From Candidatus Latescibacterota bacterium (GTDB lineage: Bacteria; Latescibacterota; UBA2968; UBA8231): 64,000 nt of DNA. The notes under the pieces were generated by a model that worked only from the letters and a program-made list of their open reading frames with translations, did not search any database and was not told the DNA's origin. The translations under genes were made by a program, and so were the position numbers. Shown here piece after piece: positions 3,240-50,985 of the stretch (position 1 is the first letter of the stretch; each line of letters opens with the position of its first letter). The stretch is taken from the NCBI GenBank assembly GCA_965242865.1, contig CBDETK010000013.1:896001-960000 (forward strand), in the 5' to 3' direction.

Positions 3240-4400
3240 GTGCGACGCTACGCGCTGGTCGAAGAGGAAGTCGCTGCGATTCCAGCGGCCGAGCTGGCGG
3301 TCGAACAGGCCCTGCACCTGCACGCCCAATACCCCAAAGAGCTGGAGCTCGGCTTTCCCAGCCCGCTCAATGGCCGGTGTTATCAAATCCGGTCGCGGGG
3401 CTATGTCGGCGTGGTGCCATTGGGCGCGGAGGCCGCCTTGGAGATCAATCCCAAAATACGCTGCTCCCTGCTCCTGCCCATGCTGGAGTACGCCTATCAG
3501 TTGCCCAAGATCAGTGCCCACAAGGCGCCGGCCACGATGGGGGATATTTACGAGTTTTGGGCCGAGGTCTTGGCGCGCCAAGTTTTGCAGCGGGTGCGGC
3601 GCGGGCTGTTTTGGGATTACCAAACCCGCGAAGGGTCGAGCCGGTGGGTGCGGGGGCGCATGTACCCCGAGCGGAGTGGCTTGGGAATCCACCCCTACTG
3701 CCGGTTTGCAGAACACACGCCCGATATCATGGACAACCGCATCTTGGCCAGCGCATTGCACGGCCTGCGGCGCTTTGCCTTTCGCCGCGAAAGCATTCGG
3801 CAGATGGTCGGCCGCGCTTGGGGGGCGCTGAGCGAGCTAAACTACCGCCCCATTCGCCCGGCCGATTGCCTCGGCGTACCGTACCACCGGCTAAACGAGG
3901 ACTACCGCCCCATGCATGCGCTGTGCTACCCCTTGCTCCAACAGCGGAGTCCGGCTTGGGGGCTGGGGGCCGAGGAAGGGCCGGCGTATCTGCTGCACAT
4001 GCCGACCTTGTTCGAGCGGTTTTGCACGGCCTTTATCGACCACAAGCTCAAGCACCAGGTCGAACTAAAGGCCCAGTATCACACGCGCCTCAAGGGCGCC
4101 AAGCGGCTTTCCTTCCGCTTGGACATGGCCCTGTTTTCAGCGGCCACCGGGCAGCCGCTGGCGGTAATTGATGCAAAGTACAAGGCCGACGGTCCCGTAG
4201 AAAGCGACGTGCAGCAGGTGGTGGCCTACGCAGTGCAGCTCGGGACGCAGCGGGCCTTTTTGCTCTATCCCAACCGCGATAGGGACGAGCAATTTGAGGT
4301 CGGCCCGGTGGCCGTGCAGACGCTGGGGTACGATCTCGAAGCGGACGATCTGGAAGAAGCGGGCGAGTTCGTGATCTGCAGCTTAGAAAACGCCATATAA
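3240..4400 (+). CDS. mcrC: McrC-family PD-(D/E)xK nuclease subunit
   Basis: GTG 3240 after AGGAG; GYVGVV, INPKI, LFERF, RLDM...VIDAKYK, DVQQVVAY; follows mcrB. Confidence 0.88.
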   Translation: MRRYALVEEEVAAIPAAELAVEQALHLHAQYPKELELGFPSPLNGRCYQIRSRGYVGVVPLGAEAALEINPKIRCSLLLPMLEYAYQLPKISAHKAPATMGDIYEFWAEVLARQVLQRVRRGLFWDYQTREGSSRWVRGRMYPERSGLGIHPYCRFAEHTPDIMDNRILASALHGLRRFAFRRESIRQMVGRAWGALSELNYRPIRPADCLGVPYHRLNEDYRPMHALCYPLLQQRSPAWGLGAEEGPAYLLHMPTLFERFCTAFIDHKLKHQVELKAQYHTRLKGAKRLSFRLDMALFSAATGQPLAVIDAKYKADGPVESDVQQVVAYAVQLGTQRAFLLYPNRDRDEQFEVGPVAVQTLGYDLEADDLEEAGEFVICSLENAI

Positions 4401-4417
4401 AGATTTTTATGTAAATA
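4390..4417 (+). repeat. dif-like site A: ACGCCATATAA-AGATTT-TTATGTAAATA
   Basis: 11-6-11 layout with ATAA-N6-TTATGTAAA core; contains mcrC stop codon. Confidence 0.7.
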
Positions 4418-4436
4418 AAACCAAAATCATCTAAAA

Positions 4437-4463
4437 CTGGATTCCCGCGTTCGCGGGAATGAC
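4437..4463. repeat. REP/dRS3-like palindrome CTGGATTCCCGCGTTCGCGGGAATGAC
   Basis: ATTCCC-N8-GGGAAT hairpin; copies at 26405, 37821, 37861. Confidence 0.85.
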
Positions 4464-4525
4464 ATAAGTAGAAAAGACCGTGCCGACTTAAAAGGAATCG
4501 GCGACATACAAATGACACAAAAAAT

Positions 4526-5779
4526 TTAAGACTCAACCAAGAACAAACTCAAATCAGCCCAGTACGTAATCACGACCAAGCAAGCTAACAAAATGAACAG
4601 AAAGGGCAGGGAGACCCGGTAGAGCCGATGGACGGGTTGTTCAAAGCGAATGCTGGCAATAAAGAGGTTGAGGCCAACCGGCGGCGTTGAGTAGCCGATT
4701 TCCAAGTTGGTTAAAAAGATGATCCCGAGGTGAATGGGGTGAACGTCGTATGCCGCGGCAATGGGCAAAATTAGGGGCACGACGATGAGCAGGGCCGAGA
4801 ACATGTCGATCATGCAGCCAACCGCTAGCAGAAATACATTGAGGAGAATCAAGAACAGCAGACGGCTGCTGATGTGAGCCTCGATGTACGCGAGTAAGCG
4901 CGTTGGAATTTCTGCATCGACGAGGTAATTGGTGTAAGCCATGGCCGCGGCCAAGACCACGAAAATTCCGCCGACCAGCACCATGCTGTCGCAGATGATT
5001 TTGGGCAGTTGCCGGATGGATACCCCGCGGCGGATTAGCACCGCCACCACCAAAGCGTACAGGGTGCTCAGGGCCGCGGCCTCGCTGACGGCGATGAACC
5101 CTCCGTAGATCCCCCCGAAGATCACCACCGGCAACAAAAGCTCCCAACTACAAGCGACAAAGGTCTGCGGCAATTGACGCCAGCCGATGGAGTGCTGGGG
5201 GGCCGGGCACCGCCGACCTTGGAACAAGCTGTAGCCAGACAAGGCTCCCACCAAGAGCAAGCCCGGGGCAATGCCGGCGATAAAAAGCTGATCGACCGGC
5301 GTCTCGGATACGATGCCGTAGATGATCAGGGGCAAGCTGGGCGGAAAGAGCAAGCCCAAGCTGCCCGAGGTGGTAATCAGGCCGAGCGAAAACGAATCGG
5401 GCAGACGCTGTTGTCGCAGCGCGGGCAACAGCAACCCACCGAGCGCGACAATGGTCATCCCGGACGCGCCGGTCAACGCCGTGAAGAGGGCGCAGACGAC
5501 AATGGCCATGATGGCCAGCCCCCCGGGCAGCCAGCCGAGCAAGGCTTGCGAAAAGCGCACGAGCCGGGCGGGGGCGCCGCTTTCGGCGAGGAGAAAGCCC
5601 GTCAGGGCGAAGAGCGGAATAGCCGTTAAGGTCGGCGTTTCGGCTATCCGGTACATCTCGATGAAAACGACGGTTAAATCGATCTCGGCGAGGGAAAAGT
5701 GCAAAAGGGCCAGCGCGCTGATGACCACAAAGAGCGGGACCCCGGCCAGGGCGGCGAGGGCGGCGAGGAGGCTGCTCAC
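4526..5779 (-). CDS. TRAP transporter large permease (DctM family)
   Basis: LTAIPLF, GSLGLLFPPS, TPPVGLNLF; GTG start overlaps the DctQ stop. Confidence 0.92.
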   Translation of the reverse strand: MSSLLAALAALAGVPLFVVISALALLHFSLAEIDLTVVFIEMYRIAETPTLTAIPLFALTGFLLAESGAPARLVRFSQALLGWLPGGLAIMAIVVCALFTALTGASGMTIVALGGLLLPALRQQRLPDSFSLGLITTSGSLGLLFPPSLPLIIYGIVSETPVDQLFIAGIAPGLLLVGALSGYSLFQGRRCPAPQHSIGWRQLPQTFVACSWELLLPVVIFGGIYGGFIAVSEAAALSTLYALVVAVLIRRGVSIRQLPKIICDSMVLVGGIFVVLAAAMAYTNYLVDAEIPTRLLAYIEAHISSRLLFLILLNVFLLAVGCMIDMFSALLIVVPLILPIAAAYDVHPIHLGIIFLTNLEIGYSTPPVGLNLFIASIRFEQPVHRLYRVSLPFLFILLACLVVITYWADLSLFLVES

Positions 5780-20640: not shown

Positions 20641-20643
20641 GTA

Positions 20644-20805
20644 ATGCCAAGTAAGCTGACTATTTTCTCTGAGTTATGGGATTTTATGAAGGTCCGCAAA
20701 AAGTGGTGGTTGGGGCCGATATTCGCCGTTTTGATCCTGCTCGGGCTGCTCATTGTCACCACCCAAGGGTCGGCGGTGGCGCCTTTCATTTACACGCTGT
20801 TTTAG
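20644..20805 (+). CDS. Small membrane protein, DUF5989-like (53 aa)
   Basis: MPSKLTIFSELWDFMKVRKKWWLGPIFAVLILLGLLIVTTQGSAVAPFIYTLF; missed by ORF track. Confidence 0.85.
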   Translation: MPSKLTIFSELWDFMKVRKKWWLGPIFAVLILLGLLIVTTQGSAVAPFIYTLF

Positions 20806-20831
20806 TGCTCATAAAGATTTTTATGTAAATG
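20804..20831 (+). repeat. dif-like site B: AGTGCTCATAA-AGATTT-TTATGTAAATG
   Basis: Left arm 9/11 identical to E. coli XerC arm GGTGCGCATAA; ends in apt ATG. Confidence 0.75.
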
Positions 20832-21341
20832 AACCTCAAAGAACTCATCCGCGAAGTCCCCAACTTCCCGCAAGCCGGCGTCTCCTACAAGGACATCACG
20901 CCGCTGCTCAAAGACCCGGTTGGTTTGGCCGCCGCAGTCCAAGCCATGCTGGTCCCCTTTGCGGACGCCAAGGTCGATCTCGTCGCCGGCATTGAGGCGC
21001 GCGGCTTTGTATTTGCCGCGCCAATCGCCCTCGAACTGGGATGTGGTTTGGTGCCGGTGCGCAAGCCGGGCAAGCTCCCGGCGGCCACCTTGCGCCGCGA
21101 ATACGCGCTCGAATACGGCGAGACGGCCTTAGAAGTCCACACCGATGCGGTCGCCCCCGGGCAAAAGATCTTGGTCGTGGACGACGTCTTGGCCACCGGC
21201 GGGACCTTGGCGGCGACCTGCCACGTGCTCAAAACGCTAGGGGCGGTGGTCGCCGGCATCAGCGTGTTGGTCGAGTTGAGCTTTTTAGCGGGCCGCGACC
21301 GCTTGCCCGGCTACCCATTGGAAACCGCTATCGTCTATTGA
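20829..21341 (+). CDS. apt: Adenine phosphoribosyltransferase
   Basis: GIEARGF, RKPGKLP, YALEYG, VDDVLATGGT. Confidence 0.97.
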   Translation: MNLKELIREVPNFPQAGVSYKDITPLLKDPVGLAAAVQAMLVPFADAKVDLVAGIEARGFVFAAPIALELGCGLVPVRKPGKLPAATLRREYALEYGETALEVHTDAVAPGQKILVVDDVLATGGTLAATCHVLKTLGAVVAGISVLVELSFLAGRDRLPGYPLETAIVY

Positions 21342-21382
21342 ACCCCAACCCCAACCCCAAACGATGGAGCCATCATACCTTC

Positions 21383-22054: not shown

Positions 22055-22063
22055 GTAAAGGGC

Positions 22064-25577: not shown

Positions 25578-26458
25578 TGACGCTCGGCGTGGCCGGCCAT
25601 GCCCGCGAGGTGGCGGTCCATCGGCAGGCTCTGCGGGGTTGCCGCGAGATTCGACTGGTGTATCGCGCCGATTGCGCCGCGGTCTTACGCGAAAAAATAG
25701 ATGGGCTGGTGTTGTTGCACGTAGAGGACAAGGCGCATTGGCTCGACGCGGCCAGCGCGGCCGGTCTCCACGTCATGGCGACCCATCCCGTCCAAGAGGT
25801 GAACCATCCGTCCAAGGTCTGCGTGCTGTCGCTGGGGAGGCACACGCGCTTTGGCTCGGCGTTGGCCCGACCGGGCGTGGCGCATTACTCGTTGGAGCTT
25901 TCTTTTACGTCGGCTTCCTTTGAGCGCGTGGACCGCGAGGCGATTTGCAATCAAGCGGCCTTGGATATGTGCGACCTGCTGTTGGGTGCTTGGGGGCCGG
26001 TCGATGTGCTGTACAGCAGGATGCGCAACTTCTTTCATCCCGGTCGCGTGGAGGACGCGTCGGTCGCGCTGCTGAGAATGCACAATGGCGTCGAAGGTTC
26101 GGTCGCGCTCTTCGACGTGGCGGGGGGGACCCCGACCTTGCGGATTCGGTTGTACGCAGCCGACGAGGTCGTGGATGCGTCTTGGCCTTGGGCATGGGCC
26201 GCAGACGATTTGGCGGCGTACTATCGCAATTTCGTCGCTTGTATCCAAGGGCGGGCCCAGCCCCTGTTGGGATTGGGGCAGGTCGCCGAAAGCTATCGGC
26301 TCTTGGCATGGCTGCGCGCCTCGGCGCGACAAGATGCGATAATGTCTTATAAAGATTTTTATGTAAATAAAAAAACAAAAGACAAAAACCATCATCATTC
26401 AGAACTGGATTCCCGCGTTCGTGGGAATGACGACTGTATGCAAAAACAGGGCCGATGA
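25574..26458 (+). CDS. Divergent Gfo/Idh/MocA-like protein with repeat-derived C-terminal tail
   Basis: AGLHV and VEDASVALLRMHNGVEG resemble Gfo/Idh/MocA; the last ~38 codons read through dif-like site C and the palindrome. Confidence 0.55.
   Translation: MMTLGVAGHAREVAVHRQALRGCREIRLVYRADCAAVLREKIDGLVLLHVEDKAHWLDAASAAGLHVMATHPVQEVNHPSKVCVLSLGRHTRFGSALARPGVAHYSLELSFTSASFERVDREAICNQAALDMCDLLLGAWGPVDVLYSRMRNFFHPGRVEDASVALLRMHNGVEGSVALFDVAGGTPTLRIRLYAADEVVDASWPWAWAADDLAAYYRNFVACIQGRAQPLLGLGQVAESYRLLAWLRASARQDAIMSYKDFYVNKKTKDKNHHHSELDSRVRGNDDCMQKQGR
26342..26369 (+). repeat. dif-like site C: ATGTCTTATAA-AGATTT-TTATGTAAATA
   Basis: Left arm identical to sites D and E; spacer identical to A and B. 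Confidence 0.78.
26405..26431. repeat. REP/dRS3-like palindrome copy
   Basis: CTGGATTCCCGCGTTCGTGGGAATGAC. Confidence 0.85.
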
Positions 26459-26482
26459 ACATTCCATTAGGACAGCTATATA

Positions 26483-27016
26483 ATGTATAAGTCATCGTCA
26501 TCCGCCGCGCCTCCCACGTACTTCGCGCTTGGGTTAGCGTCTTTCTTGTTGGCGATTGTGTTGCTGTTCAACCTGCTCAGTCCTATGACCGTGCCGGTTA
26601 CCAAGGAGCAGTTTGAGCAGATTAGAGAGGCCGACCTGATTGAGTATCTAATCGTGCAACCCCGGGGATTTGCTTGGCAGCTCAAACGGGCCGTGCGCGT
26701 CCAAGGGACCAACGGCCCGACTCAGGCCCAGCGGATCGCGCTCGCCGAGCCGGACTCAACGATGGCCGAAAATTGGCAACAAAAGGGGGGTGCGGTGCGG
26801 CAAGAGCGCGATGTTTCGCAGTGGGGGGGGATGATCTTCATGGCCTTGTTGCTCGGCGTGGGGGGGTGGCATATCTGGTCCCAAATACGGCTCGATCTCA
26901 AAGGGGGAGGGGGGCCTCGCCGTCGCTTGCGCGACCTAGAAACCGCGCTCAAACAAGGCAAAATTACCCAAGCCGAATTCCGGCAGCAGGCCGAGCGGCT
27001 GTGGGCCGAATTGTGA
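26483..27016 (+). CDS. Hypothetical 2-TM membrane protein with SHOCT-like C-terminus
   Basis: Two TM segments; LKQGKITQAEF. Confidence 0.6.
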   Translation: MYKSSSSAAPPTYFALGLASFLLAIVLLFNLLSPMTVPVTKEQFEQIREADLIEYLIVQPRGFAWQLKRAVRVQGTNGPTQAQRIALAEPDSTMAENWQQKGGAVRQERDVSQWGGMIFMALLLGVGGWHIWSQIRLDLKGGGGPRRRLRDLETALKQGKITQAEFRQQAERLWAEL

Positions 27017-27030
27017 GGAGCTATGGCGAG
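27010..27030 (+). repeat. 21-bp direct repeat, left copy (duplicate of mutL RBS and start)
   Basis: ATTGTGAGGAGCTATGGCGAG identical to 28268-28288. Confidence 0.92.
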
Positions 27031-27048
27031 AGGTGGGGACGCTTCCAA

Positions 27049-27075
27049 GGCTGGAGGGCAGGACGCCCTCCAGCC
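27049..27075. terminator. GC hairpin downstream of LRR gene 1 (related copy at 30081-30111)
   Basis: GGCTGGAGGGC-AGGAC-GCCCTCCAGCC; no clear U tract. Confidence 0.55.
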
Positions 27076-27136
27076 CGGATGCATTGCAAACAACACGTAG
27101 GTCTGTGTGCTATCGGCGTCGGGGACGCCATCCCCG

Positions 27137-28108
27137 TTACTGTCTGTCGGGCAGGTCAGGGTTGGGTGGGACTGGCTTTGACGCTACGACGCGCCTTGAG
27201 CCAGGTCTTGCTCTCAAGGAGTCGATTGCGGCTCTTGATGCTTCGGAGAGGGGACAACCAGAAATCGATATAAGTTTCAAGTTGGGCAGCTTGCCCGGCA
27301 GGCCGAAGTCACTCAAATCCGAAACCGCGCACGACCTGTTACCTTTGCTATGCATCCTCAGCGTATCCAAGTTGGTCAAATTTGCCAACGGATTCACATT
27401 CGTAAGAAGGGGGTTGCCCATCAGCCTCAGGTGTCGCAAGTTGGTCAAATTTGCCAACGGATTCACATCCGCAAGAAGGTCGTTGTTGGTCAGCCTCAGG
27501 TGTCGCAAGTTGGTCAAACTGTCCAATGGACTCAAGTCCATAAGAAGGTCGTTGGCATCCAGATACAGGTGTCGCAAGTTGGTCAAACTTCTCAATGGAC
27601 TCAAGTCCGTAAGAAGGTCGTTGTCGCCCAGCCGCAGCCACTTCAAGTTGGTCAAACTGGCCAACGGAGTCACATCCGTAAGAAGGGGATTGCTGCTCAG
27701 AGCCAGCGAGTCCAAGTTGGTCAGACGGGCTAACGGAGTCATATCCGAAATCGCGTTGTCGTTCAGATTCAGGAATCGCAAGTTGGTCAAGTGTTCAAGG
27801 CCTTCCAAACGCTGAATGTTTTTACTGCTCGCGTCGAGCTTTGTCAGGAGAGCCAGATCATTTGCGGTAAGGGGCGTCACGTGCGCCAAGTTGGGGGGGA
27901 TGTCCAACAAGGGGTCCAGTGTCTTCCGCACCGCACGCTCCAGATTGGGGTCGATGAAAGGCGAAACTGGGCAGGATGTGCTTGTACTCAGGTGGGCTTT
28001 GCCGGCCGGATGGGGGGCAACCGGCGCGGAGTCGGCGCATCCCATCCAAGTGGCGATGAGGGCCAACAGGGCGAATCCCAGCAGGGTTTTTAGGGGGGTC
28101 AACAACAT
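27137..28108 (-). CDS. Internalin-like leucine-rich-repeat lipoprotein 1
   Basis: WMGC lipobox, DPNLERAVR cap, LxxLTNLxxLxLxxN repeats (mostly 23 aa). Confidence 0.9.
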   Translation of the reverse strand: MLLTPLKTLLGFALLALIATWMGCADSAPVAPHPAGKAHLSTSTSCPVSPFIDPNLERAVRKTLDPLLDIPPNLAHVTPLTANDLALLTKLDASSKNIQRLEGLEHLTNLRFLNLNDNAISDMTPLARLTNLDSLALSSNPLLTDVTPLASLTNLKWLRLGDNDLLTDLSPLRSLTNLRHLYLDANDLLMDLSPLDSLTNLRHLRLTNNDLLADVNPLANLTNLRHLRLMGNPLLTNVNPLANLTNLDTLRMHSKGNRSCAVSDLSDFGLPGKLPNLKLISISGCPLSEASRAAIDSLRARPGSRRVVASKPVPPNPDLPDRQ

Positions 28109-28206
28109 TTTTCCTCTCCTTTCCTTTATCTGGTATGGAGGTTAGGAGGGGGCTAGTCCTAGGAAACGCCCCTCCTTATTTGGTTTATAGGCCGTAGTAT
28201 CTCCAC

Positions 28207-28223
28207 TGCCCGTTATCATTAGT
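28207..28223. repeat. Recombination half-site upstream of LRR1: TGCCCG-TTATCATTAGT
   Basis: 15/17 match to the inverted copy of 31346-31362. Confidence 0.7.
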
Positions 28224-28267
28224 TACTTGAAGGGGGTTAGGCGAGGTCTGGTGGTCTTTGATTCTAT

Positions 28268-28288
28268 ATTGTGAGGAGCTATGGCGAG
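28268..28288 (+). repeat. 21-bp direct repeat, right copy (functional mutL RBS and ATG)
   Basis: Identical to 27010-27030. Confidence 0.92.
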
Positions 28289-30035
28289 TATTATTCGCGT
28301 TCTCGACGAAAATCTGGTTGGAAAAATCGCCGCTGGTGAAGTCGTGGAACGGCCGGCCTCGGTCGTGAAGGAATTGGTCGAAAACTCAATTGATGCGGGG
28401 GCTACAAAAATCCGCGTGGAGATCAAGGCCGGCGGCAAGCAGTTGATTGCGGTGACCGACGATGGCTCGGGCATGACCCGGGAGGATATCGCCTTGTGTG
28501 TGCGCCGGCATGCCACGAGCAAGATGGCCTCGGCGGCCGACCTGTTCTGCATTCAGACGCTGGGCTTTCGCGGCGAAGCCCTAGCCAGCATTGGTGCGGT
28601 CGCTCAGTTGGCCATTGAATCGCGCACCCCGCAAGACGAGGTGGGGACGCGCTTGGTCGTGGAAGGAGGGATAGAGCGCGAGATGCACAGCATGGGACGG
28701 GCGCACGGCACGACCATTGTGGTAAAGAACCTGTTTTTTAATACGCCGGCGCGGCGCAAATTCCTCCGGTCCATCAATGCGGAAGCCCGCCACGTGGCCC
28801 AGACCGTCATCCACTTAGCGGCTGGCTACCCGGCCCTTGGCTTTGAACTAGCACACCAAGACCGCCCGGTCTTGAACTACGCCCCGGCCTCTCGGCGAGC
28901 GCGGGCGGCCGAGTTGCTGGGCTTTCCAGCCGCCGAACTGTTGGAGTTGGCGCACGAGGAGGAGGGTCTCAAAATCGAAGGGGTCTTGGCCGGTCCCGAG
29001 CGCTGCGGCCCCAGCAAGGGCAAGCAATATCTCATTGTACAGGGACGGCCCATTGCTTCGCGGCTGATGACCCGTGCGGTACAGCGGTGTTTTGAGGGCC
29101 TGCTGCCCGAAGGACACCATCCGGTATTCATGCTCTGGATCGATATGGATCCCAAGAAAATCGACGTCAATGTCCACCCGACCAAGCGGGAGATTCGCTT
29201 GGCCAACGAGGGGCAGGTCGTCGCGGCCATTGAAACTAGCGTCCGGCACAGCTTGCGCCTGCCCGAGGTGCAATCCTTTGTCTATGCTCCTCCGCGCTCC
29301 AGCGAGACCGGCCGCGATGAGGGCAGCGAGCCGGTCGCGGTCCGCGTGGGCGAGCCAGCGTCACCAGTGCTGCACACCCTGCCCGCGTCCGGCCCCCCGG
29401 AGGCAACTGCCGGCGACCAACTCGCGATGACCTTTGTCGCCCCGGGCGAGGCCAAAGTCGCTGTCGCCGCAGACGCTGCGATGTGGCAGGTTCACAATCA
29501 GTACATCCTCGTCGAGGTGGCCGATGGCTTGCTTTTTGTCGATCAGCAGGCCGCGCACGAGCGCATCCACTACGACCGGGCCATGGCGCAGCTCGATGGC
29601 GCGACCGGGGAAAGCCAGCAGTTGCTCTTTCCCATCCAGCTAGAAATGGGGGCCGCGGATTTCGAGGTCTTCAACCAAGTGCGGGATGACATTGCCAAGC
29701 TGGGCTTTGTCGTGCGGGACTTTGGGGCGCGGACGGTGTTGGTGGAAGCTGTTCCTGCGGCCTTGGATCGCTTTGGCGAGGGCGACGCTTTTTATCAGCT
29801 CTTGAACGACGTGCGCGATGGCCAGCATTCGGGGCACGCTTGGCGCGAAGCCCTCGTCTTAGCTTATGCGCGCAAGGCGAGTATCGAGAAGGGGCAACGC
29901 CTGAATGCCGAGGCGCAGGCGCATTTGATCAGGGCACTGCTCCAAGTGGAGCGGCCGCACGTAAGCCCGACGGACAAGCCGATTATGGCGCGGATGAAGT
30001 TGAGCGATATGGAGCGGCTGCTACGGAAGTTCTAA
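28281..30035 (+). CDS. mutL: DNA mismatch repair protein MutL
   Basis: IAAGEVVERPASVVKELVENSIDAGA, GFRGEAL, DVNVHPTKRE, DQQAAHER. Confidence 0.97.
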   Translation: MASIIRVLDENLVGKIAAGEVVERPASVVKELVENSIDAGATKIRVEIKAGGKQLIAVTDDGSGMTREDIALCVRRHATSKMASAADLFCIQTLGFRGEALASIGAVAQLAIESRTPQDEVGTRLVVEGGIEREMHSMGRAHGTTIVVKNLFFNTPARRKFLRSINAEARHVAQTVIHLAAGYPALGFELAHQDRPVLNYAPASRRARAAELLGFPAAELLELAHEEEGLKIEGVLAGPERCGPSKGKQYLIVQGRPIASRLMTRAVQRCFEGLLPEGHHPVFMLWIDMDPKKIDVNVHPTKREIRLANEGQVVAAIETSVRHSLRLPEVQSFVYAPPRSSETGRDEGSEPVAVRVGEPASPVLHTLPASGPPEATAGDQLAMTFVAPGEAKVAVAADAAMWQVHNQYILVEVADGLLFVDQQAAHERIHYDRAMAQLDGATGESQQLLFPIQLEMGAADFEVFNQVRDDIAKLGFVVRDFGARTVLVEAVPAALDRFGEGDAFYQLLNDVRDGQHSGHAWREALVLAYARKASIEKGQRLNAEAQAHLIRALLQVERPHVSPTDKPIMARMKLSDMERLLRKF

Positions 30036-30169
30036 AGCTGAGCGCAGATCGGCTATCGGCTTACTACACGACACCAGCGACCCGCCGGAGGGTAGGACGC
30101 CCTCCAGCGGGAGCATTGGAACAACACACGTAGGTCTATGTGCTATCGGCGTCGGGGACGCCGTCCCCG

Positions 30170-31111
30170 TTACTGTCTGTCGGGCAGGTCAGGGTCAGGT
30201 GGGACTGGCTTTGACGCTACGACGCGCCTTGCGCCAGGTCTTGCTTCCAAGGCACGGATTGCGGCTCTTGATGCTTCGGAGAGGGGACAACCAGAAATCG
30301 ATATAAGTTTCAAGCTGGGCAGCTTGCCCGGCAGGCCGAAGTCACTCAAATCCGAAACCTTGCACTCGGAGCTATGCATCTTCAGCGTATCCAAGTTGGC
30401 CAGATTGGCCAATGAATTCACATTCGTAAGATCGGGGTTGCCAGACAGCCTCAGATATTGCAAGTTGGTCAAACTGGCCAGCGGAGTCACATCCGAAATC
30501 GAGTTTGCGCCCAATGTCAACCTTTGCAAGTTGGTCAAACTGGCCAGCGGAGTCACATCCGAAATCGAGTTTACGTTCAGCCTCAGGACTCGCAAGTTGG
30601 TTAAACTTCTCAACGGACTTACATCCGAAATCGAGTTCACGGCCAGCCACAGAGAGTCCAAATTCGTAGCGTGTTGGAGGCCGTCCAAGCTCCCAATGTT
30701 TTTATTTTTTGCGTTGAGCACGGTCAGGGTAGCCAGATCCGTCACTCTAAGGGGCGGCACGGTAGGGTCCGTCAAGCTGCTGGTGGGGTCCCCCCCCACC
30801 TGGGCCCCTAGTGCTGTCCGCACCGCACGCTCCAGACTGGAGTCGGCGAACGTAACGTAGGTCGGTGTGCTATCGGCGTCGGGGATGCCGTCCCCGTCCG
30901 AATCGGTGGCGGTCTGGGTACTGTCGGCGTCGGGTATGCCGTCCCCATCAGAATCGGCGGCAGTCTGGGTGCTGTCTGGACAGGTCAGGGTCAGGTGGGC
31001 TTTGCCGGCCGGATGGGGGGCAACCGGCGCGGAGTCGGCGCATCCCATCCAAGCGGCGATGAATCCCAACAGGGCGAAGCCGAGCAGGGTTTTTATGGGG
31101 TTCAACATCAT
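30170..31111 (-). CDS. Internalin-like leucine-rich-repeat lipoprotein 2 with two DSDGDGIPD motifs
   Basis: Paralog of LRR1; mostly 22-aa LRRs; AGGAGG upstream of ATG 31111. Confidence 0.9.
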   Translation of the reverse strand: MMLNPIKTLLGFALLGFIAAWMGCADSAPVAPHPAGKAHLTLTCPDSTQTAADSDGDGIPDADSTQTATDSDGDGIPDADSTPTYVTFADSSLERAVRTALGAQVGGDPTSSLTDPTVPPLRVTDLATLTVLNAKNKNIGSLDGLQHATNLDSLWLAVNSISDVSPLRSLTNLRVLRLNVNSISDVTPLASLTNLQRLTLGANSISDVTPLASLTNLQYLRLSGNPDLTNVNSLANLANLDTLKMHSSECKVSDLSDFGLPGKLPSLKLISISGCPLSEASRAAIRALEARPGARRVVASKPVPPDPDLPDRQ

Positions 31112-31156
31112 TTTTTCTCTCCTCCTTATTTGGTTTATAGGCCGTGGTATCTCCAC

Positions 31157-31173
31157 TGCCCGTTATCGGTAGT
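31157..31173. repeat. Left inverted repeat TGCCCGTTATCGGTAGT upstream of LRR2
   Basis: Exact reverse complement of 31346-31362. Confidence 0.88.
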
Positions 31174-31320
31174 TACTTGAAGGGGTGAATAGTGGAGGCG
31201 AGGTCTGGTGGGCTTTGATTCCGGTCTGGTAGTCTCTGATTCCATCAGACCGGAAAGCATCCTGCAGTTAATCAGCAATTGGACGTTCAGTCTTTTTATG
31301 AGAGAACTGAAATTTCGTCC

Positions 31321-31348
31321 TTGACTTTTATTTTTTACAACCTATACT
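31321..31348 (+). promoter_or_regulatory. Sigma70-like promoter TTGACT-16 bp-TATACT
   Basis: Near-consensus hexamers pointing to the recombinase; -10 overlaps the palindromic site. Confidence 0.7.
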
Positions 31349-31376
31349 ACCGATAACGGGCATTATCGGTAGTATA
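31343..31376. other. Perfect palindromic tyrosine-recombinase-type site TATACTACCGATAA-CGGGCA-TTATCGGTAGTATA
   Basis: 14-bp arms, 6-bp asymmetric spacer, ATAA-N6-TTAT core; ~110 bp upstream of the recombinase. Confidence 0.85.
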
Positions 31377-31486
31377 AAAACTAGGCGAAGCCCTCGCAAA
31401 ACGCGGCGGCAAAATGCCGCGGTGTTCGCTATATTTATTTTATTCTTTAGCCACTGTTAAGAACATCGCGGATATTTATCCATTTA

Positions 31487-32467
31487 ATGAGTGAGACGAT
31501 CAAACCAATCGTCCGCCGACTGACGCCAACGCCCGCGTTGGTTGCGGACGACCCCCTCGAACAATTTCTCAGCGGCCAGCTCAGCGAGCGCACTCGGCGT
31601 GCGTACTACGCCGACCTCCAGCACTTTTTTGCATCCATCGGCATGGAACTCGCAGACGTCTCCCTCGCCATCTTACGCACGATCACCTTTGAACACGTAG
31701 TCGCCTTTAGAAACCAACTCGCCAGCGAAGGCTACAAGCGCAGCAGCATCAATAGAAAATTGTCCAGCCTGAAGTCGTTGTTCAAGATGTTGGTCGCCTT
31801 GGGCCACATTGGGAAAAATCCGGCCGACTCCGCCTTGGTGCGCGGCTACAGATTGGACGAAACGCTGGTTGGCAAAGCACTTTCCAATGAGGTGTTGAAC
31901 AGACTACAGCAAGCCATTGCCGAGGAAGAAAACGACTTAGTCCGTACGCGCGATGCGGCCATGTTCCATTTGCTCATGTTCGGCGGGCTGCGCCGATCCG
32001 AAGTGGCGGGCGTCGCTTGGGAGGATATATCCTTGGAAGGCGTCTTTCACATTCTGCGCCTGCCCGATACGAAATCGGGCGTGACGCAGGAGATCAAACT
32101 GCAAAACATCGTCTTACATCATCTCGAACTATACAAACAACAGCTACAGAACGCGGGTTGGCCGACGACCGGCAAGGTCTTTATCAGCCTGTCGCGCAAC
32201 CAGTCTCGCGGCCAGCCCCTGACCGACCAGTCGGTAAATCACATCGTCAAGAAGTACGCCCGGCGCACCGGCCTCCCCCAAAACGTCACCGCGCACATGT
32301 TTCGCCATACATGCTGCACCCTAGCGATTGAAGGCGGCGCCAAGCCCCAGCAAGTGCAGGCCCACCTGCGCCACAAGGACCTAAAGACGACCATGCGCTA
32401 CTACGAAAACCGCGAAAAGCTGCTCGACAATGCGTCGGATTATATTAGGATGGGTATGGGTAGTTGA
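31487..32467 (+). CDS. Xer-like tyrosine recombinase
   Basis: TRRAYYADL N-domain, GLRRSE, TKSG, HMFRH, LRH...TTMRY; catalytic residues intact. Confidence 0.95.
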   Translation: MSETIKPIVRRLTPTPALVADDPLEQFLSGQLSERTRRAYYADLQHFFASIGMELADVSLAILRTITFEHVVAFRNQLASEGYKRSSINRKLSSLKSLFKMLVALGHIGKNPADSALVRGYRLDETLVGKALSNEVLNRLQQAIAEEENDLVRTRDAAMFHLLMFGGLRRSEVAGVAWEDISLEGVFHILRLPDTKSGVTQEIKLQNIVLHHLELYKQQLQNAGWPTTGKVFISLSRNQSRGQPLTDQSVNHIVKKYARRTGLPQNVTAHMFRHTCCTLAIEGGAKPQQVQAHLRHKDLKTTMRYYENREKLLDNASDYIRMGMGS

Positions 32468-32545
32468 GCTACCCGGATACACCCCCCGCTATCAGCTTTA
32501 GAACTCCCGCAACAGCCGCCTTATTTGTGTTTTGCTTTATTTTTT

Positions 32546-32573
32546 TGTTTACATAATATATTTTATAAGACAT
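32546..32573 (-). repeat. dif-like site D (best candidate for chromosomal dif): ATGTCTTATAA-AATATA-TTATGTAAACA
   Basis: Spacer plus right arm 15/17 identical to B. subtilis dif TATATA-TTATGTAAACT; intergenic at the gene-orientation switch. Confidence 0.8.
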
Positions 32574-32618: not shown

Positions 32619-33560
32619 TCACTCGGCGATATCCAAGTGCCGCTGAAAGGTCGCCAGATCGGCTGCTTGCACTGCCATGCGATGCAACTGCTTGAGCCGG
32701 TGCAAATCGTGAATCGCGGCAATGCGGGCGGCCAACGAATGGGCGGAGGCCGCCCCAAAGCGAATCTCCAACACGTCGAGAATATCTTCAATGGCGCGGT
32801 TGCGGCCCCCCTGCTCAATGCCCTGCTCAATGCCCTGCTCAATGCCCTGCTCAATGCCCTGCTCAATGCCCTGTTGGGTGAGGTGTTGAGCAAAGGATGA
32901 TTCGCGCATGATTGCGTCCATAAGACCCTCCTGGGAAATAATACGCTGAATGGTGGTCCACTCGTAAGCCAACCCACTCAGTATCGCCAAGCCGCCCAAA
33001 AAGTCAACCTTGACGGCCGGATCCAATGGCATCGCCTGGGTTGCCTGAATGCACTGGCGCAACCACGCTTCCGAGGCCATGCCGGCCGGCGGTTTCATCA
33101 AGGGCGTGAAAGGAAGCAAACCCGACGGACCGGCGCGGACAACCGCTTGTCCCTCGATTTCGCTCAACCGAATGACCTTGTATTGCACCAAGATGCAGTG
33201 GCCGGGCAGGTCTTGGGCGTAGTAGCCCGGATCGCGCCGCCCGGCTTGGGGCCGTAGGTAAATCACGCTGGAATAGACCGGCTGGCGATGTTGTTCAATG
33301 GCGCGGATGATATAGCTGGCCATGCGGAGCGGCATGGGCGGGTCGGTGCGGTCGGTGGTTTGAAACTCGTGATGGACCAACGCCTCTTCACCGGCGATTT
33401 GGGCGCGCATGAGGCTATCGGTTTGGTGGGTTTCGACGGTGGATTGCTCTGGGTTGATGACTTCGCAGGCCGCCACATCGTCTCGTTGGAGGGCGAAGCG
33501 GACGAAGTCGGCGGGATAGGCTTGGATCAGGTGTTTGGAAATGGTATCGTATTCGGCCAT
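32619..33560 (-). CDS. Rpn/YhgA-like PD-(D/E)xK nuclease (putative transposase family)
   Basis: YDTISKHL, TDSL..HEFQ, RMASY, QGIE repeats, LEIRFG tail. Confidence 0.85.
   Translation of the reverse strand: MAEYDTISKHLIQAYPADFVRFALQRDDVAACEVINPEQSTVETHQTDSLMRAQIAGEEALVHHEFQTTDRTDPPMPLRMASYIIRAIEQHRQPVYSSVIYLRPQAGRRDPGYYAQDLPGHCILVQYKVIRLSEIEGQAVVRAGPSGLLPFTPLMKPPAGMASEAWLRQCIQATQAMPLDPAVKVDFLGGLAILSGLAYEWTTIQRIISQEGLMDAIMRESSFAQHLTQQGIEQGIEQGIEQGIEQGIEQGGRNRAIEDILDVLEIRFGAASAHSLAARIAAIHDLHRLKQLHRMAVQAADLATFQRHLDIAE
32809..32873. repeat. 12-bp tandem repeat CCCTGCTCAATG x5 (QGIE)
   Basis: Direct reading. Confidence 0.95.
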
Positions 33561-33568
33561 AACAATTC

Positions 33569-36493
33569 CTACACCACAATATTGACGATCTTATTCGGCA
33601 CCCAGATAAATCGCTTTATCGCCGCTTCATCGGCCACGTACCGCTGGATGCTCTCCATGGCGAGCACCAAGGATTTTATCTCTTCCTCGCCGGTGTGGAC
33701 CGGCACTTCGACTTGTCCGCGCATTTTGCCATTGACCTGAATGGGTACTACGATCAAGTCCTCGGCGGCCTTTGCTGCATCCCACCGCGGCCAACTCTGA
33801 CGACTGAGGCCCTCCGCCTCCTCTGCCCCCAAGCCGGCCAACTCCCATAGCTCCTCGGCAAGGTGCGGCGCAAAGGGCGCGAGCAAGAGCAAGAAGGGCT
33901 TGGCGACGGCCTGCGGCACCTCGTCTAAGGACACCAACAAGTTGTTTAGCTCGATCAAGGCGGCAATGGCCGTGTTAAACCGCAGCCCCTCTATGTCCTC
34001 GGTCACCTTTTGGATGGTTTGGTGCAGCTTTCTTTCCAAGTCCGGGGTCAGTGCCGTGCTCGTCCCTATTTTTATGCGTCGCTCTGAATCGACGAAGTTG
34101 CGCCAAACCCGCTGCAAAAAACGCTGCATCCCGCGGATGCCTTCCATGCTCCACGGCGCACTCGCTTCGAGCGGCCCCATGTACATTTCGTACAGCCGCA
34201 GGGTATCCACGCCAAATTCCTCGCCGACTTCTTCGGGTGGCAACCCGTTTTTATAGCGTTTGCCCATCTTGCCGAAGGACCGGTGCAGCCGCTTCCCCGT
34301 CCCCTTCTCAACAGGCTCCCCGTCGTGGAACTCGACCTCGCGGATGTCGATATACACGCCGCGATCGTCTTGGAAAGCATCGGCCGTCATCATGCCTTGA
34401 TTGAACAGCTTCTTAAACGGCTCGGGCGTAGATACGTGGCCCAAGTCGTAGAGGGCCTTGTGCCAAAACCGGGCGTAGAGCAAGTGCAACACCGCGTGTT
34501 CAGCACCGCCGATGTACAGATCGACCGGCATGAAGTAGCCTTCCTTGGCCGGGTCGCAGAAGGCTTCTTCGTTGTGTGGGTCGATAAAGCGGAGATAGTA
34601 CCAGCACGAACCAGCCCATTGGGGCATGACGTTGAGTTCGCGCTGGCAGGCCACCCCGTCAATTGCTACAGTCGTCCATTCCGCGCCAGCCCGGTGCAGC
34701 GGCGGCGACACGGGTTGCGCGGGATCGTCCGAGGTCTCCGGCCTGAAATCCTTTAGGTCCGGCAGCACCACCGGAGGGCCGGCCGCGACCGAATATCCGT
34801 CGGGATGCGTGGCCAGTGGAAAGGGTTCGCCCCAATAGCGCTGCCGCGCAAAGGTCCAGTCGCGCAGCTTGTAGTGTACCGCGGCTTGGCCGCGCCTGTG
34901 GGCTTCTAGAGCGGCGACAATTTGGGCTTTGGCCGCGGCGGATGCCAAGCCGTTAATGGCATAAAAATTATCGCCGGCCGCTGGAACAGGAGGCGAATGG
35001 ATCGCGGTTCCCTCGCCAGCATACCACCCGGTCTGGCCAGCACCAGCCAGCGGAAGCACGGCCCCGCCTTCCTCTTCGGCCACCACGCGCACGATGTCCA
35101 AGCTATACGCGGTGGCAAAGGCAAAGTCGCGCTCGTCGTGGGCCGGCACGGCCATGATGGCCCCCGCGCCGTAGTCCATGCTGACGTAGTCCGCGACAAA
35201 GATGGGGATTTTTTGCTCATTGACTGGATTGCGGGCGTAGATGCCGGAGAAAATCCCGGTTTTTTCCTTGGTCTCATCGGCGGTGGCGACGGCAGCCTGA
35301 GCTACGTACTCGGCGACGGCTTCCCGGATGGAGGCTCCGCTCCCCTTCCACTGCGCCGGCGTCCCCTCGGGCCAAGCACTCGGAACCAAGTAGGATTCTG
35401 ACGCGGGATCGACCAGCGGATGCAGCGGAGCAATGGCCATAAAGGTCGCGCCAAAGAGCGTGTCGGGCCGGGTCGTGAACACGGGCAACGGCTCGACGAC
35501 CGCGTCGCTTTGCGAATCGAGGACATCGAAATGCACTTCCGCCCCTTCGCTGCGGCCGATCCAATTGCGCTGCATCCGCTTGATGGGTTCGGGCCAATCG
35601 AGGCAAAAGGGCGCGCCGTGGCGGTCCTCCAGCTCGGCGTCCAAATCCGCCAAGAGCCGCTCGGCGTAGGCTGTGATGCGCATCGTCCACTGCCGCAATG
35701 GCTTGCGATAGACCGGGAAATCGCCCCGCTCGCTGCGGCCTTCGTTGGTCACCTCCTCGTTGGCCAACACAGTGCCCAAGCGAGGGCACCAGTTGACGAC
35801 GGCCTCTTGCTGGTACGCCAAGCGGTAGTTGTTCAACACGGCTTGCCGTTCCACCGCGGTGAGGGCCGCCCAGTCGGCCTCCGAGTGGAGCGTTTGGCGG
35901 TCGGCGGGCGACAAGGCCCGGCCGGCCGCAAATTGGGCCTCTAAGTCGGCGAGAGGCTTGGCCCGCCCCTGTATGAGGCGTCCTTGGCTGTCTTCCCAAG
36001 TATCGTCTTCGTCGAAATAGCTATTGAAGAGTTGGGCAAAAATCCACTGGGTCCAGCGGTAGTACGACACCTGCGAGGTGACCACTTCGCGCTCCCAGTC
36101 AAACGACAGCCCGAGAAACTGCAACTGGCCGCGCATGGCCGCGATATTCTGCTCGGTAACGGTCGCGGGATGGATGTTGTGTTCGATGGCGTATTGCTCG
36201 GCCGGCAACCCAAAACTGTCGAACCCCATCGGGTGCAGGACGTTAAAGCCCTGCATCCTTTTGTAGCGGCTGTAGATGTCGCTGGCGATGTACCCTTTGG
36301 GATGGCCGATGTGCAACCCCGCGCCGCTGGGATAGGGAAACATATCGAGGATGTAGCACTTGGGTTTGCTGCCGTCAAACCCGGGATCGCCCGGTCCCCG
36401 CGTTTGATAGGTCTGCTCCCGCTGCCAATGGGACCGCCATTTGGCCTCGATGGTTTGGAAGTTGTACTGGTTTGTTTTCTCTTTGGTTGACAT
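33569..36493 (-). CDS. leuS: Leucine--tRNA ligase
   Basis: MFPYPSGAGLHIGH, GFDSFGLPAE, FTTRPDT, KMGKR (KMSKS variant); ATG 36493 after GGAG. Confidence 0.97.
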   Translation of the reverse strand: MSTKEKTNQYNFQTIEAKWRSHWQREQTYQTRGPGDPGFDGSKPKCYILDMFPYPSGAGLHIGHPKGYIASDIYSRYKRMQGFNVLHPMGFDSFGLPAEQYAIEHNIHPATVTEQNIAAMRGQLQFLGLSFDWEREVVTSQVSYYRWTQWIFAQLFNSYFDEDDTWEDSQGRLIQGRAKPLADLEAQFAAGRALSPADRQTLHSEADWAALTAVERQAVLNNYRLAYQQEAVVNWCPRLGTVLANEEVTNEGRSERGDFPVYRKPLRQWTMRITAYAERLLADLDAELEDRHGAPFCLDWPEPIKRMQRNWIGRSEGAEVHFDVLDSQSDAVVEPLPVFTTRPDTLFGATFMAIAPLHPLVDPASESYLVPSAWPEGTPAQWKGSGASIREAVAEYVAQAAVATADETKEKTGIFSGIYARNPVNEQKIPIFVADYVSMDYGAGAIMAVPAHDERDFAFATAYSLDIVRVVAEEEGGAVLPLAGAGQTGWYAGEGTAIHSPPVPAAGDNFYAINGLASAAAKAQIVAALEAHRRGQAAVHYKLRDWTFARQRYWGEPFPLATHPDGYSVAAGPPVVLPDLKDFRPETSDDPAQPVSPPLHRAGAEWTTVAIDGVACQRELNVMPQWAGSCWYYLRFIDPHNEEAFCDPAKEGYFMPVDLYIGGAEHAVLHLLYARFWHKALYDLGHVSTPEPFKKLFNQGMMTADAFQDDRGVYIDIREVEFHDGEPVEKGTGKRLHRSFGKMGKRYKNGLPPEEVGEEFGVDTLRLYEMYMGPLEASAPWSMEGIRGMQRFLQRVWRNFVDSERRIKIGTSTALTPDLERKLHQTIQKVTEDIEGLRFNTAIAALIELNNLLVSLDEVPQAVAKPFLLLLAPFAPHLAEELWELAGLGAEEAEGLSRQSWPRWDAAKAAEDLIVVPIQVNGKMRGQVEVPVHTGEEEIKSLVLAMESIQRYVADEAAIKRFIWVPNKIVNIVV

Positions 36494-36512
36494 AAAACTC
36501 CTTATAAGACAT
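36485..36512 (-). repeat. dif-like site E: ATGTCTTATAA-GGAGTT-TTATGTCAACC
   Basis: Spacer holds the leuS SD and the right arm holds the leuS ATG. Confidence 0.72.
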
Positions 36513-37805: not shown

Positions 37806-37819
37806 TTTCTCATCCGTAG

Positions 37820-37887
37820 CGTCATGCCCGCGAACGCGGGAATCCAGATGTGGGTATTCCGTCATGCCCGCGAACGCGGGAATCCAG
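37820..37887. repeat. Two tandem REP/dRS3-like palindromes (40-bp period)
   Basis: CGTCATGCCCGCGAACGCGGGAATCCAG at 37820 and 37860. Confidence 0.9.
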
Positions 37888-37906
37888 TCTTGCTATAACA
37901 TAAAGA

Positions 37907-37937
37907 GAAGGCTATCGAGATAGACTCGATAGCCTTC
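37907..37937 (-). terminator. Terminator hairpin after pnp
   Basis: 13-bp stem GAAGGCTATCGAG/CTCGATAGCCTTC followed by TCTTT on the - strand. Confidence 0.75.
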
Positions 37938-37960
37938 CCATCCTAGCCGAGACCAGCCCC

Positions 37961-49870: not shown

Positions 49871-49907
49871 AAAAAATCCGCCCGACCAAGGTGTTGGCCG
49901 GGCGGAT
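49871..49907 (-). terminator. Intrinsic terminator after tRNA-Gly
   Basis: ATCCGCCCG...CGGGCGGAT stem with A6 on the + strand. Confidence 0.8.
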
Positions 49908-49909
49908 GC

Positions 49910-49984
49910 TGGAGCGGGAGACGGGAATCGAACCCGCGACATCAAGCTTGGGAAGCTTGCGCTCTACCCCTGAGCTACTCCCGC
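49910..49984 (-). tRNA. tRNA-Gly(CCC)
   Basis: GCGGGAG acceptor; CAAGC-TTCCCAA-GCTTG; CCA end. Confidence 0.95.
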
Positions 49985-50021
49985 TGATTTTTCTTTAAGG
50001 TAGAAGAGGCCCCAACCCCTG

Positions 50022-50966
50022 TCAACCCATCCCCCAGCGATACTCCCACTCGCCGACGATGCGCTCAACGACGCCGGTCTTTCCCCATACATCGAGATCG
50101 AGTACGCGCAAGCGGCGGTCGCGGCGGCACCACGTGGTTTGTCGTTTGGCCAAGTGCCGGGTGCGCTGTTTGGTCTGCTCAATGGCTTCGCGCCAAGGGC
50201 AATGCCCGGCCAGCGCGCGGCACAATTCAAAATAGCCCAAAGTCCCCAAGGCGCTGTCGCCGCGCTCGTATCCCAAGGCGCGCAAGGCGCGCACTTCTTC
50301 GATCCATCCTCGTTCCACCATTTGCTCGACCCGCTCGTCAATCCGCTCGTAGAGCCGGCCGCGGGCCATGGTCAGGCAGATCATCTGCGGCTGCTGCACG
50401 AGCGGCTGCCCGGTGCGCTCCCGACACAGGGTGCTGAGCGTACTCTTTCCGGCCAGCGCGACCTCCAACGCCCGCAAAATCCGCTGCCCGTCGCCCGGGT
50501 GCAACCGCGCTTGCGCGACCGGATCCCGATGGCCCAACTCCTCGTATAAGGAGGCAATTCCCTCGCCGTGCAGGCGATTGCACAATTCAGCGCGGATCGG
50601 CGCGTATTCGGTGTCGTCCGCAAAGCAGCCATCCAACGCGCTCTGCCAGTACAGGCCCGTCCCGCCGACCATCACGGGCAGGCCCCCTCGGTTCCAGACC
50701 TGCCCAATGACGCGCCGCGCCGCACGAGCGTACGCGCCCGCGCTGTAGTTTTTCTCCGGCGGGAGCACATCGAGCAGGTGATGGGGGCATTGGTTTTGCT
50801 GTTCAGGGGTTGGCTTGGCCGTGCCAATATCCAGGTAGCGATAGATTTGCCGCGAGTCGGCTGAGATGATTTCCACGTTGGGCAAGCGCTGGGCTACTTC
50901 GAGGGCTATTTCCGTTTTGCCGGTGGCGGTGGGGCCGGTGATTAGGATGAGTGGTTTGCTTGACAT
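50022..50966 (-). CDS. miaA: tRNA dimethylallyltransferase
   Basis: GPTATGKT, SADSRQIY, DIGTAKP, AKRQ.TW. Confidence 0.96.
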   Translation of the reverse strand: MSSKPLILITGPTATGKTEIALEVAQRLPNVEIISADSRQIYRYLDIGTAKPTPEQQNQCPHHLLDVLPPEKNYSAGAYARAARRVIGQVWNRGGLPVMVGGTGLYWQSALDGCFADDTEYAPIRAELCNRLHGEGIASLYEELGHRDPVAQARLHPGDGQRILRALEVALAGKSTLSTLCRERTGQPLVQQPQMICLTMARGRLYERIDERVEQMVERGWIEEVRALRALGYERGDSALGTLGYFELCRALAGHCPWREAIEQTKQRTRHLAKRQTTWCRRDRRLRVLDLDVWGKTGVVERIVGEWEYRWGMG

Positions 50967-50985
50967 AATTACAATTATGGGAACT
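50958..50985 (-). repeat. dif-like site F: AGTTCCCATAA-TTGTAA-TTATGTCAAGC
   Basis: Fills the rqcH-miaA gap; the right arm holds the miaA ATG. Confidence 0.65.

Follow-up and report, generated by a model that had tools for sequence, protein, structure and literature searches.

Bacterial chromosomes are taught as having one dif site. In the accessible part of Kono et al. (2011; PMC3025954), one dif per chromosome is predicted, close to the GC-skew shift point, and papers citing Karaboja et al. (2021) describe dif-like sites of the Bacillus subtilis terminus, termed XDS, on which XerD unloads Smc-ScpAB (PMC11840125, PMC11894783, PMC10945525). In the dif modules of Acinetobacter, as far as the available part of that work goes (PMC13141974), inversions and deletions take place between sites with identical or near-identical spacers, the crossover lies inside the site, and C/D and D/C sites alternate along module arrays; in other systems, Xer-like enzymes can catalyze inversions (PMC1914069, PMC5357621, PMC3599477). 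Here we analyze a 64,000-nt window of a Candidatus Latescibacterota genome (C13:896001-960000; the window is the whole stretch of DNA that was analyzed, and its coordinates are used throughout), which carries six dif-like sites, A to F, and rec, a gene for a third tyrosine recombinase of the Xer family. The six are probably Xer-type sites that form a conserved array pointing inward at the replication terminus, in which the inner pair (C and D) flips the DNA it encloses and the outer four (A, B, E and F) act as protein-bound landmarks.

The sites were detected by the pattern ATAA-N6-TTATGT(A/C)AA, the core of a 28-bp site of 11-6-11 architecture (left arm, spacer and right arm). Exactly six matches were found in the window, with cores at 4397, 20811 and 26349 on the plus strand and at 32548, 36487 and 50960 on the minus strand. 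The corresponding full sites are A (4390..4417, +), B (20804..20831, +), C (26342..26369, +), D (32546..32573, -), E (36485..36512, -) and F (50958..50985, -), which reproduces the coordinates and strands of six 11-6-11 sites reported in an initial annotation of this DNA. In 100 dinucleotide shuffles of the window the mean number of matches was 0.00 and none had six, and the whole assembly (13 contigs, 5,997,474 bases) held six matches, all of them sites A-F. A position matrix built from the six sites, a genome-wide scan that the annotation had proposed, scored them at 31.5-49.6 bits, well above the next-best genomic match at 21.9 bits; as the matrix was trained on A-F themselves it is biased toward them, and only the size of this gap is meaningful. 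Chance matches to AT-rich DNA are ruled out by the shuffles, the whole-genome count and the matrix score gap, in agreement with the annotation, which had judged such matches improbable. A promoter or translation-start motif was likewise rejected as a full explanation, as an ATG, Shine-Dalgarno or stop covers few of the 22 conserved arm positions; by the whole-genome pattern search, the motif is absent from all other gene starts in this genome.

Sites A, B and C were found to have 20 bp in common, namely ATAA, the spacer AGATTT and the right arm, beside left arms that differ, and the left arm ATGTCTTATAA is common to C, D and E; both identities had been pointed out before and were recovered in the extracted sites. 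The right arm, TTATGTAAA(C/T)A, is of canonical XerD type, and its form TTATGTCAA occurs in E and F only. This A-to-C change fits a coding constraint, since the ATG in these two arms is a start codon and an A would give ATG-TAA. The spacer of site D (AATATA) is the most canonical dif-like of the six. The sites thus have the 11-6-11 architecture, the conserved XerD-type arm and the ATAA in the inner left arm that characterize dif, and depart from it in copy number, dif being single per chromosome while six copies are present here and four to six per genome across the genus. Taken together, these results reveal that the earlier observation is correct and understated.

The array lies at the replication terminus. 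Over the whole contig, cumulative GC skew is highest at 920-928 kb of C13 (24-32 kb of the window) and lowest at ~3.66 Mb, about half a chromosome away, and within the window the cumulative skew peaks and changes sign at ~32 kb. Since the maximum coincides with their location, sites A-F surround the terminus. All six are within 47 kb, three on each side, with their right (XerD-type) arms facing inward, and this orientation and the skew peak agree with the statement in the annotation that every XerD-like arm faces the locus at 31-32.5 kb; the comparison with the skew terminus that it had proposed places A-F at the global maximum. Location at a skew switch, as expected of dif, was found both in this genome and in a genome of a second genus (G132, see below). 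Two side observations concern the skew itself. Cumulative skew of C13 is non-monotonic from origin to terminus (e.g., with reversals near 0.2-0.4 Mb and 1.4-1.6 Mb), which suggests rearrangements or assembly joins. A search of the genome for skewed octamers resembling the FtsK-orienting polar sequences (KOPS) gave no strongly skewed G-rich word, the best being ATTGAAAC (144 vs 41).

Conservation of the array was examined in relatives. The rec gene as query identified 50 loci, of which 48 are from close relatives and 2 are weak matches (23-26% identity); the close relatives are metagenome-assembled genomes that include many complete chromosomes, and most of their records bear the label Latescibacterota or Gemmatimonadota. 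When proteins and sites of the genome under study were mapped on the 48 close loci, a conserved order was detected (apt ... g25574 / g26483-mutL-rec / leuS-asnS-like ...), with four central sites positioned before apt, before g26483, after rec and at the start of leuS. The pattern search was extended to whole genomes of 31 members of the genus (g1). Of these, 23 had their matches together on one contig, and in all 23 every plus-strand site preceded every minus-strand site, with 4-6 sites each and 116 in total; only 3 stray matches were found elsewhere in those 23 genomes, and a control pattern gave 0-2 matches per genome. The remaining 8 of the 31 genomes are fragmented and have their matches on separate contigs. 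Site spacings in the genus are ~17, 5.5, 3.5, 2.9 and 14.5 kb, compared to 16.4, 5.5, 6.2, 3.9 and 14.5 kb in the genome under study.

The gene boundaries that the sites occupy were found to be conserved as well. Numbered S0 to S5 from A to F, site S0 follows the stop of a McrC-like gene in 11 of 11 relatives fetched for that boundary, and S5 is at the start of miaA in 5 of 5 relatives fetched for that one. Site S4 is at the start of leuS in all 22 genus rows, and S1 precedes apt in 20 of the 22 (the row of the genome under study stops short of B, and L021 has no site there). In these comparisons within the genus the arms are conserved and the spacers vary between species. In the second genus (g12), genome G132 encodes a Rec that is 65% identical and neighboring proteins that are 34-75% identical; its sites are found after the McrC-like gene, at the miaA start, before apt and one on each side of rec, all aimed at rec, and its local GC skew flips at the inner pair. 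Left arms are ATGTCTTATAA-like in g1 and ATGCCGTATAA-like in G132 and are uniform among the sites of a genome; this difference by genus with agreement within a genome is as expected if one protein reads all sites. Thus, presence at orthologous loci, which the initial annotation had named as a check, was observed at the same gene boundaries across the genus and, in part, in g12.

The inner pair provides evidence of recombination. Among members of the genus, the g26483-mutL-rec segment between the inverted sites C and D (26370..32545, no strand) was found in both orientations relative to its flanks. A maximum-likelihood tree of leuS DNA was built from 22 rows, the genome under study and 21 loci, with the partial loci L026, L040 and L041, which are without leuS, left out. 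On this tree 14 rows have the segment one way and 8 the other way; the partial loci L026 and L040, off the tree, have the second orientation too. Orientation changes at least five times, all five changes being forced by well-supported branches, and as shuffled labels need 6.7 changes on average, orientation is almost unlinked to phylogeny. In two sister pairs of opposite orientation (L030/L024 and L036/L035), the outside flank of the site matches one partner and the inside flank the other. The homology switches between the left arm and the spacer or right arm in both pairs, inside the 28-bp site, which is the signature of a site-specific crossover.

Spacer sequences were compared in the same loci. 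Of the 21 genus rows in which both inner sites were found, 5 have the same spacer in the two, and inner spacers differ from one genome to another; those of the outer sites are site-specific, mostly CATATA before apt and GGATAA-like, which is the Shine-Dalgarno, at leuS. No inversion between outer sites was detected among the genus loci mapped. Two properties of dif modules, flanking Xer sites in inverse orientation and a crossover within the site, are present in the inner segment, and with its XerD-type arms internal it is a D-type module in form. As read from these alignments, C and D represent two copies of a chromosomal dif, inverted relative to each other, and the pair appears to have been recombinationally active over evolution. 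Active inversion by the inner pair, seen here at least five times, was not on the list of readings offered by the initial annotation, which also made no mention of the conservation of the array in the genus and, in part, in g12, of Rec as a third paralogue or of the four sites that punctuate genes.

Four of the six sites punctuate genes, with a stop in A and the starts of apt, leuS and miaA in B, E and F, respectively. The TAA within the ATAA of site A is the stop of the McrC-like gene (3132-4400), and the next gene is convergent. This gene is the second member of a plus-strand gene pair (1807-4400) and matches McrC at 59.3 bits, well under the cut-off of 338; since the pair is conserved beside A genus-wide and in g12, it is core here rather than a variable defence island. 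The last three bases of site B are the ATG of apt (20829-21341; NF002636, 217.5 bits). On the other side of the terminus, site E occupies the 19-nt gap between the gene for a class II aminoacyl-tRNA synthetase (36513-37865) and leuS (33569..36493, -), with the Shine-Dalgarno of leuS in its spacer and the ATG in its right arm, and the right arm of site F contains the ATG of miaA (50022-50966; TIGR00174, 245.3 bits).

Site C, the left half of the inner pair, is upstream of g26483-mutL-rec, and site D, the right half, is 78 nt past the rec stop, at the GC-skew switch. The first gene of the inner segment, g26483 (26483..27016, +), is a conserved open reading frame (ORF) of 177 aa with no function assigned and a weak match to GvpG below the cut-off; it is kept beside mutL (28281..30035, +; MutL_C 110.5 bits, DNA_mis_repair 101.4 bits) in relatives. 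Two additional ORFs, both on the minus strand, are located at 27137-28108 (323 aa) and 30170-31156 (a leucine-rich-repeat protein), and these extra genes account for an inner segment of 6.2 kb compared to ~3.5 kb in most relatives. Outside of the array proper, a multicopy gene, orf313 (32619..33560, -), is situated between D and leuS. It has 20 BLAST matches in the genome, one copy being 92% identical over 942 nt (C13 ~4.825 Mb), and only weak matches to Rpn-family nuclease/transposase and FliH models; its presence between D and leuS only in this genome and the closest relative L021 points to a recent insertion beside dif. A repeat of ~75 nt with a GC-rich hairpin, similar to repetitive extragenic palindromes (REP), directly follows A (4430-4520) and C (26393-26470) and has ~80 copies in the genome (79 and 80 BLAST matches for the two flanks). 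The ORF upstream of site C (25574-26458, +) has no in-frame stop before 26458 and reads through the site into this repeat, an extension of ~39 codons that is probably due to chance.

As a population check, Logan contigs of 4 runs (X10-X13 of 14 listed) were aligned to positions 20000-38000 of the window. Runs other than these four, labelled sponge metagenome, hold 0.34-0.45 of the sampled words, from which no habitat claim is drawn. Contigs were found to be colinear with the window across B and C (20000-27160), D (31024-32703) and E (33447-38000). Eight contig skips (96-1234 nt, with sides of 21-48 nt) were observed inside genes, away from the sites. Spikes in contig depth at 26010-26610, 32621-33221 and 37429-38000 coincide with repeats detected by BLAST, the first being explained by the REP-like repeat after C.

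The genome was found to have three tyrosine recombinase genes. One encodes a canonical XerD (334.5 bits, cut-off 329.6) and another a XerC-like protein with XerC as its best match (307.1 bits, short of the 335.15 required of a XerC equivalog and above the PRK00283 subfamily cut-off). As XerD and XerC-like genes are separately present, the product of rec (31487..32467, +; Phage_integrase 97.7 bits, SAM-like N domain) is a third paralogue. Rec scores 132.7, 118.9, 111.7 and 91.8 bits against XerC, XerD, XerA and XerS, with cut-offs of 335, 330, 220 and 267, respectively, and is 25-26% identical to the XerD and XerC-like proteins of its own genome. In alignment with Escherichia coli XerD it keeps the R, H-x-x-R, H and Y residues, the catalytic lysine being without a confident assignment. 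Rec thus has the domains and catalytic residues of the Xer subfamily at scores under the equivalog levels. An FtsK gamma domain, an Smc hinge and ScpB were also detected; the host therefore has the XerC-like, XerD and FtsK gamma components expected alongside dif.

At E <= 1e-30, 59 of the family's 75 other genomes were found to have rec, compared to 0 of 92 genomes from 13 other families of the phylum. Sites were compared across the family in 10 complete genomes. In G133, a family member without rec, one nearly palindromic site lies between leuS and mutL, and in G167, in which rec was not found, the same place is occupied by a pair of inverted sites separated by 30 bp; neither genome was found to have outer sites. 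The inverted pair of G167 (L092, G167:C1:1057612-1057678) is followed by 1.2 kb that had no match to the proteins of the genome under study that were used. Several rec-bearing genera were found to have an inverted pair around rec alone, 1.1-1.8 kb apart (L045, L047, L052, L059, L064, L067, G136, G137 and G138). In other families of the phylum a single dif-type site sharing this right arm is the usual state, and a second, distant match is present in some. On this distribution of genes and sites, the simplest history would be that rec between inverted Xer sites, a D-type module, was inserted at an ancestral dif at the leuS-mutL junction, and that the outer sites arose later, within a pre-existing gene order, in part of the family.

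For the outer sites we propose a role at the terminus. Fixed at gene boundaries with both arms kept, A, B, E and F each have their own spacer, which would keep strand exchange among them or with the inner pair from reaching completion, and the essential genes between them would thereby be protected from deletion. The sites may be loaded with XerD plus XerC and/or Rec as terminus landmarks, and their inward orientation would provide one-way action on machines that arrive from the origin side. The leading candidate for this action would be the unloading or stalling of Smc-ScpAB, as at the XDS of B. subtilis, with FtsK and replication forks as alternatives. Occupancy of the outer sites by Xer proteins and an effect on chromosome machinery are inferred. 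Among the readings put forward in the initial annotation, a terminus-organizing role is the one that survives, and we regard it as plausible. It is also possible, if rather doubtful, that bacteria have in this array a counterpart of the convergent-CTCF rule, such that oriented Xer complexes, with Rec as a dedicated terminus factor, would turn one face to machines coming from the origin along both chromosome arms, stop or unload Smc-ScpAB, FtsK or replisomes one way and define a terminus compartment of ~45 kb, with the invertible central dif pair showing the same face of a resolvable dif to whichever arm arrives first.

Several observations weigh against a landmark role of the outer sites. Rec-bearing genomes of g15 and g14 have the inner pair only (at <=1 mismatch; G137, G138 and G136) and those of g9 and g22 have one site beside rec, or none; thus, outer sites are not needed wherever rec exists. 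The identical spacers of A, B and C are in direct orientation in the genome under study, which contradicts strict insulation by spacers and predicts possible deletions, and the homogenization of these three sites indicates sequence exchange among them and a deletion hazard. Sites B, E and F overlap gene starts and are bound to the direction of those genes, and genes close to the terminus are co-oriented with replication, so that the polarity may in part be a passenger effect. The XDS of Bacillus are reportedly XerD half-sites, a poor fit with the conserved left arms here. In the contigs of the four runs only the reference arrangement was found across B-E, with no strand-changing joint, a result that says little because contigs drop rare variants. 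A function of the outer sites in these uncultured organisms is, moreover, something that we purely infer.

Exchange among sites is also the starting point of an alternative in which the outer sites are functionless, Xer exchange or short-patch conversion having seeded hybrid sites in nearby AT-rich gene junctions after an extra recombinase and a duplicated dif had arisen, of which only non-lethal layouts survived, so that a mirrored polarity remained. The identical 20-bp stretch of spacer and right arm that A, B and C carry beside different left arms would fit such an origin, as would the closest relative (G046), whose identical S1 and S2 spacers point to exchange among sites, and the lack of outer sites at <=1 mismatch both in rec-bearing g15 and g14 and in rec-less G133 and G167. 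We nevertheless find this by-product origin unlikely, as A, B and F occupy orthologous boundaries in two genera despite identities of only 34-75% between neighboring proteins, the two arms are kept where spacers drift, and direct repeats on the same side are a deletion hazard, such that survivorship alone fails to predict the layout. A polar replication fork trap would account for the same geometry: as in Tus-Ter and RTP-Ter, bound sites would admit forks and block their exit, and the gene for the binding protein would be beside the innermost sites. Two opposed groups of oriented sites do flank the skew switch, and the switch is at the inner pair in both the genome under study and G132. However, many bacteria that have no trap show a skew switch at dif, and we know of no evidence for replisome arrest by Xer-dif complexes. 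Neither Tus (PF05472) nor RTP (PF02334) had a match in the genome, which is 93.6% complete, so that another terminator would be needed if a trap exists; we judge a trap quite improbable.

The gene starts at B, C, E and F, each of which is directly upstream of or overlaps a co-oriented start (four of six sites), suggest a further possibility, that Rec or XerCD, when bound at these starts, would regulate or block the transcription of apt, g26483-mutL-rec, leuS and miaA. Autoregulation would be possible at site C, since it precedes the operon of rec itself. Operators are nonetheless very unlikely as a general explanation: A and D are at gene 3' ends between convergent genes, the genes concerned share no pathway, and the site sequences obey the rules of dif rather than typical operator symmetry. 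Least credible of all, in our estimation, is that the sites are scars of integrative mobile elements exploiting Xer recombination (IMEX) or the borders of mobile, cargo-carrying dif modules. Multiple Xer sites with variable left arms do resemble IMEX junctions, and rec with its flanking sites looks like a module inserted in an ancestral single dif, but the orientation of the array is mirrored, rather than direct as in IMEX arrays or alternating as in the module arrays covered by the accessible part of PMC13141974. No directly repeated hybrid sites around an element absent from relatives were found. The initial annotation, whose interpretation stands in that the sites are Xer-type, not due to chance, apparently undescribed and all aimed at the recombinase/terminus locus, had included integration scars among its readings. 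This part was rejected, as the intervals hold core genes (apt, mutL, leuS, asnS-like, miaA and others) that are in the same order in relatives without outer sites or without rec. The probable reading remains that of an inward-facing terminus array with an invertible center and protein-bound outer landmarks.

A full-text literature search, from which subscription journals were mostly absent, returned no convergent multi-dif array and no invertible dif pair at a terminus, though this does not prove that none has been described. An array of this kind, conserved and convergent, built of full dif-like sites around an invertible dif pair that encloses a recombinase gene, is apparently an undescribed variant of Xer/dif, in which a whole lineage keeps six oriented dif copies at fixed boundaries plus a duplicated dif that flips around an extra Xer gene. 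Compared to the chromosomal dif/XerCD/FtsK system, it is similar in its 28-bp 11-6-11 site, XerD-type arm, position at the skew switch and genes for XerD, a XerC-like protein and an FtsK gamma domain, and it differs in six copies, mirror orientation and a central inverted pair that flips DNA around a third Xer gene. With Tus-Ter and RTP-Ter the likeness is one of geometry only, in opposed groups of polar sites at the terminus and a DNA-binding protein gene beside the innermost site; the sites here are Xer-type. In the single-recombinase systems XerS/difSL and XerH/difH and in the Xer-like invertases of Mollicutes, a recombinase gene is likewise beside its presumed site. By contrast to the XerS/difSL and XerH/difH systems, the genome under study also has XerD and XerC-like proteins, and Rec is far below the XerS, XerA, XerC and XerD cut-offs. 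No expression switch is evident at the inner segment, since both flanks read into it.

With the XDS of B. subtilis (Karaboja et al. 2021), so far as citing papers describe them, the array has in common extra dif-like sites clustered at the terminus of a genome with Smc-ScpAB, represented here by the Smc hinge and ScpB; it differs in that both arms are conserved, the span is ~47 kb, convergence is strict and genes are punctuated. If the outer sites are functional, their strict orientation would be a natural test of one-way action of Xer-DNA complexes on SMC, FtsK and forks. The pdif/dif modules of Acinetobacter, again as given in part of PMC13141974, resemble the inner segment in their inverse Xer sites, internal XerD arms, crossover within the site and often identical spacers, and the array offers a clear-cut case from nature in which the choice of recombining Xer sites follows the identity of their spacers. 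The six sites do not alternate, three direct being followed by three opposite, and core synteny stands in place of accessory cargo moving between replicons. Unlike the Acinetobacter modules, the segment between C and D is chromosomal, at the terminus, in vertically inherited core DNA, and its cargo is mutL and a recombinase in place of accessory genes. Dif-module architecture, to date described for plasmids and islands of Acinetobacter, can thus also settle at a chromosome terminus as a stable component that is inherited vertically.

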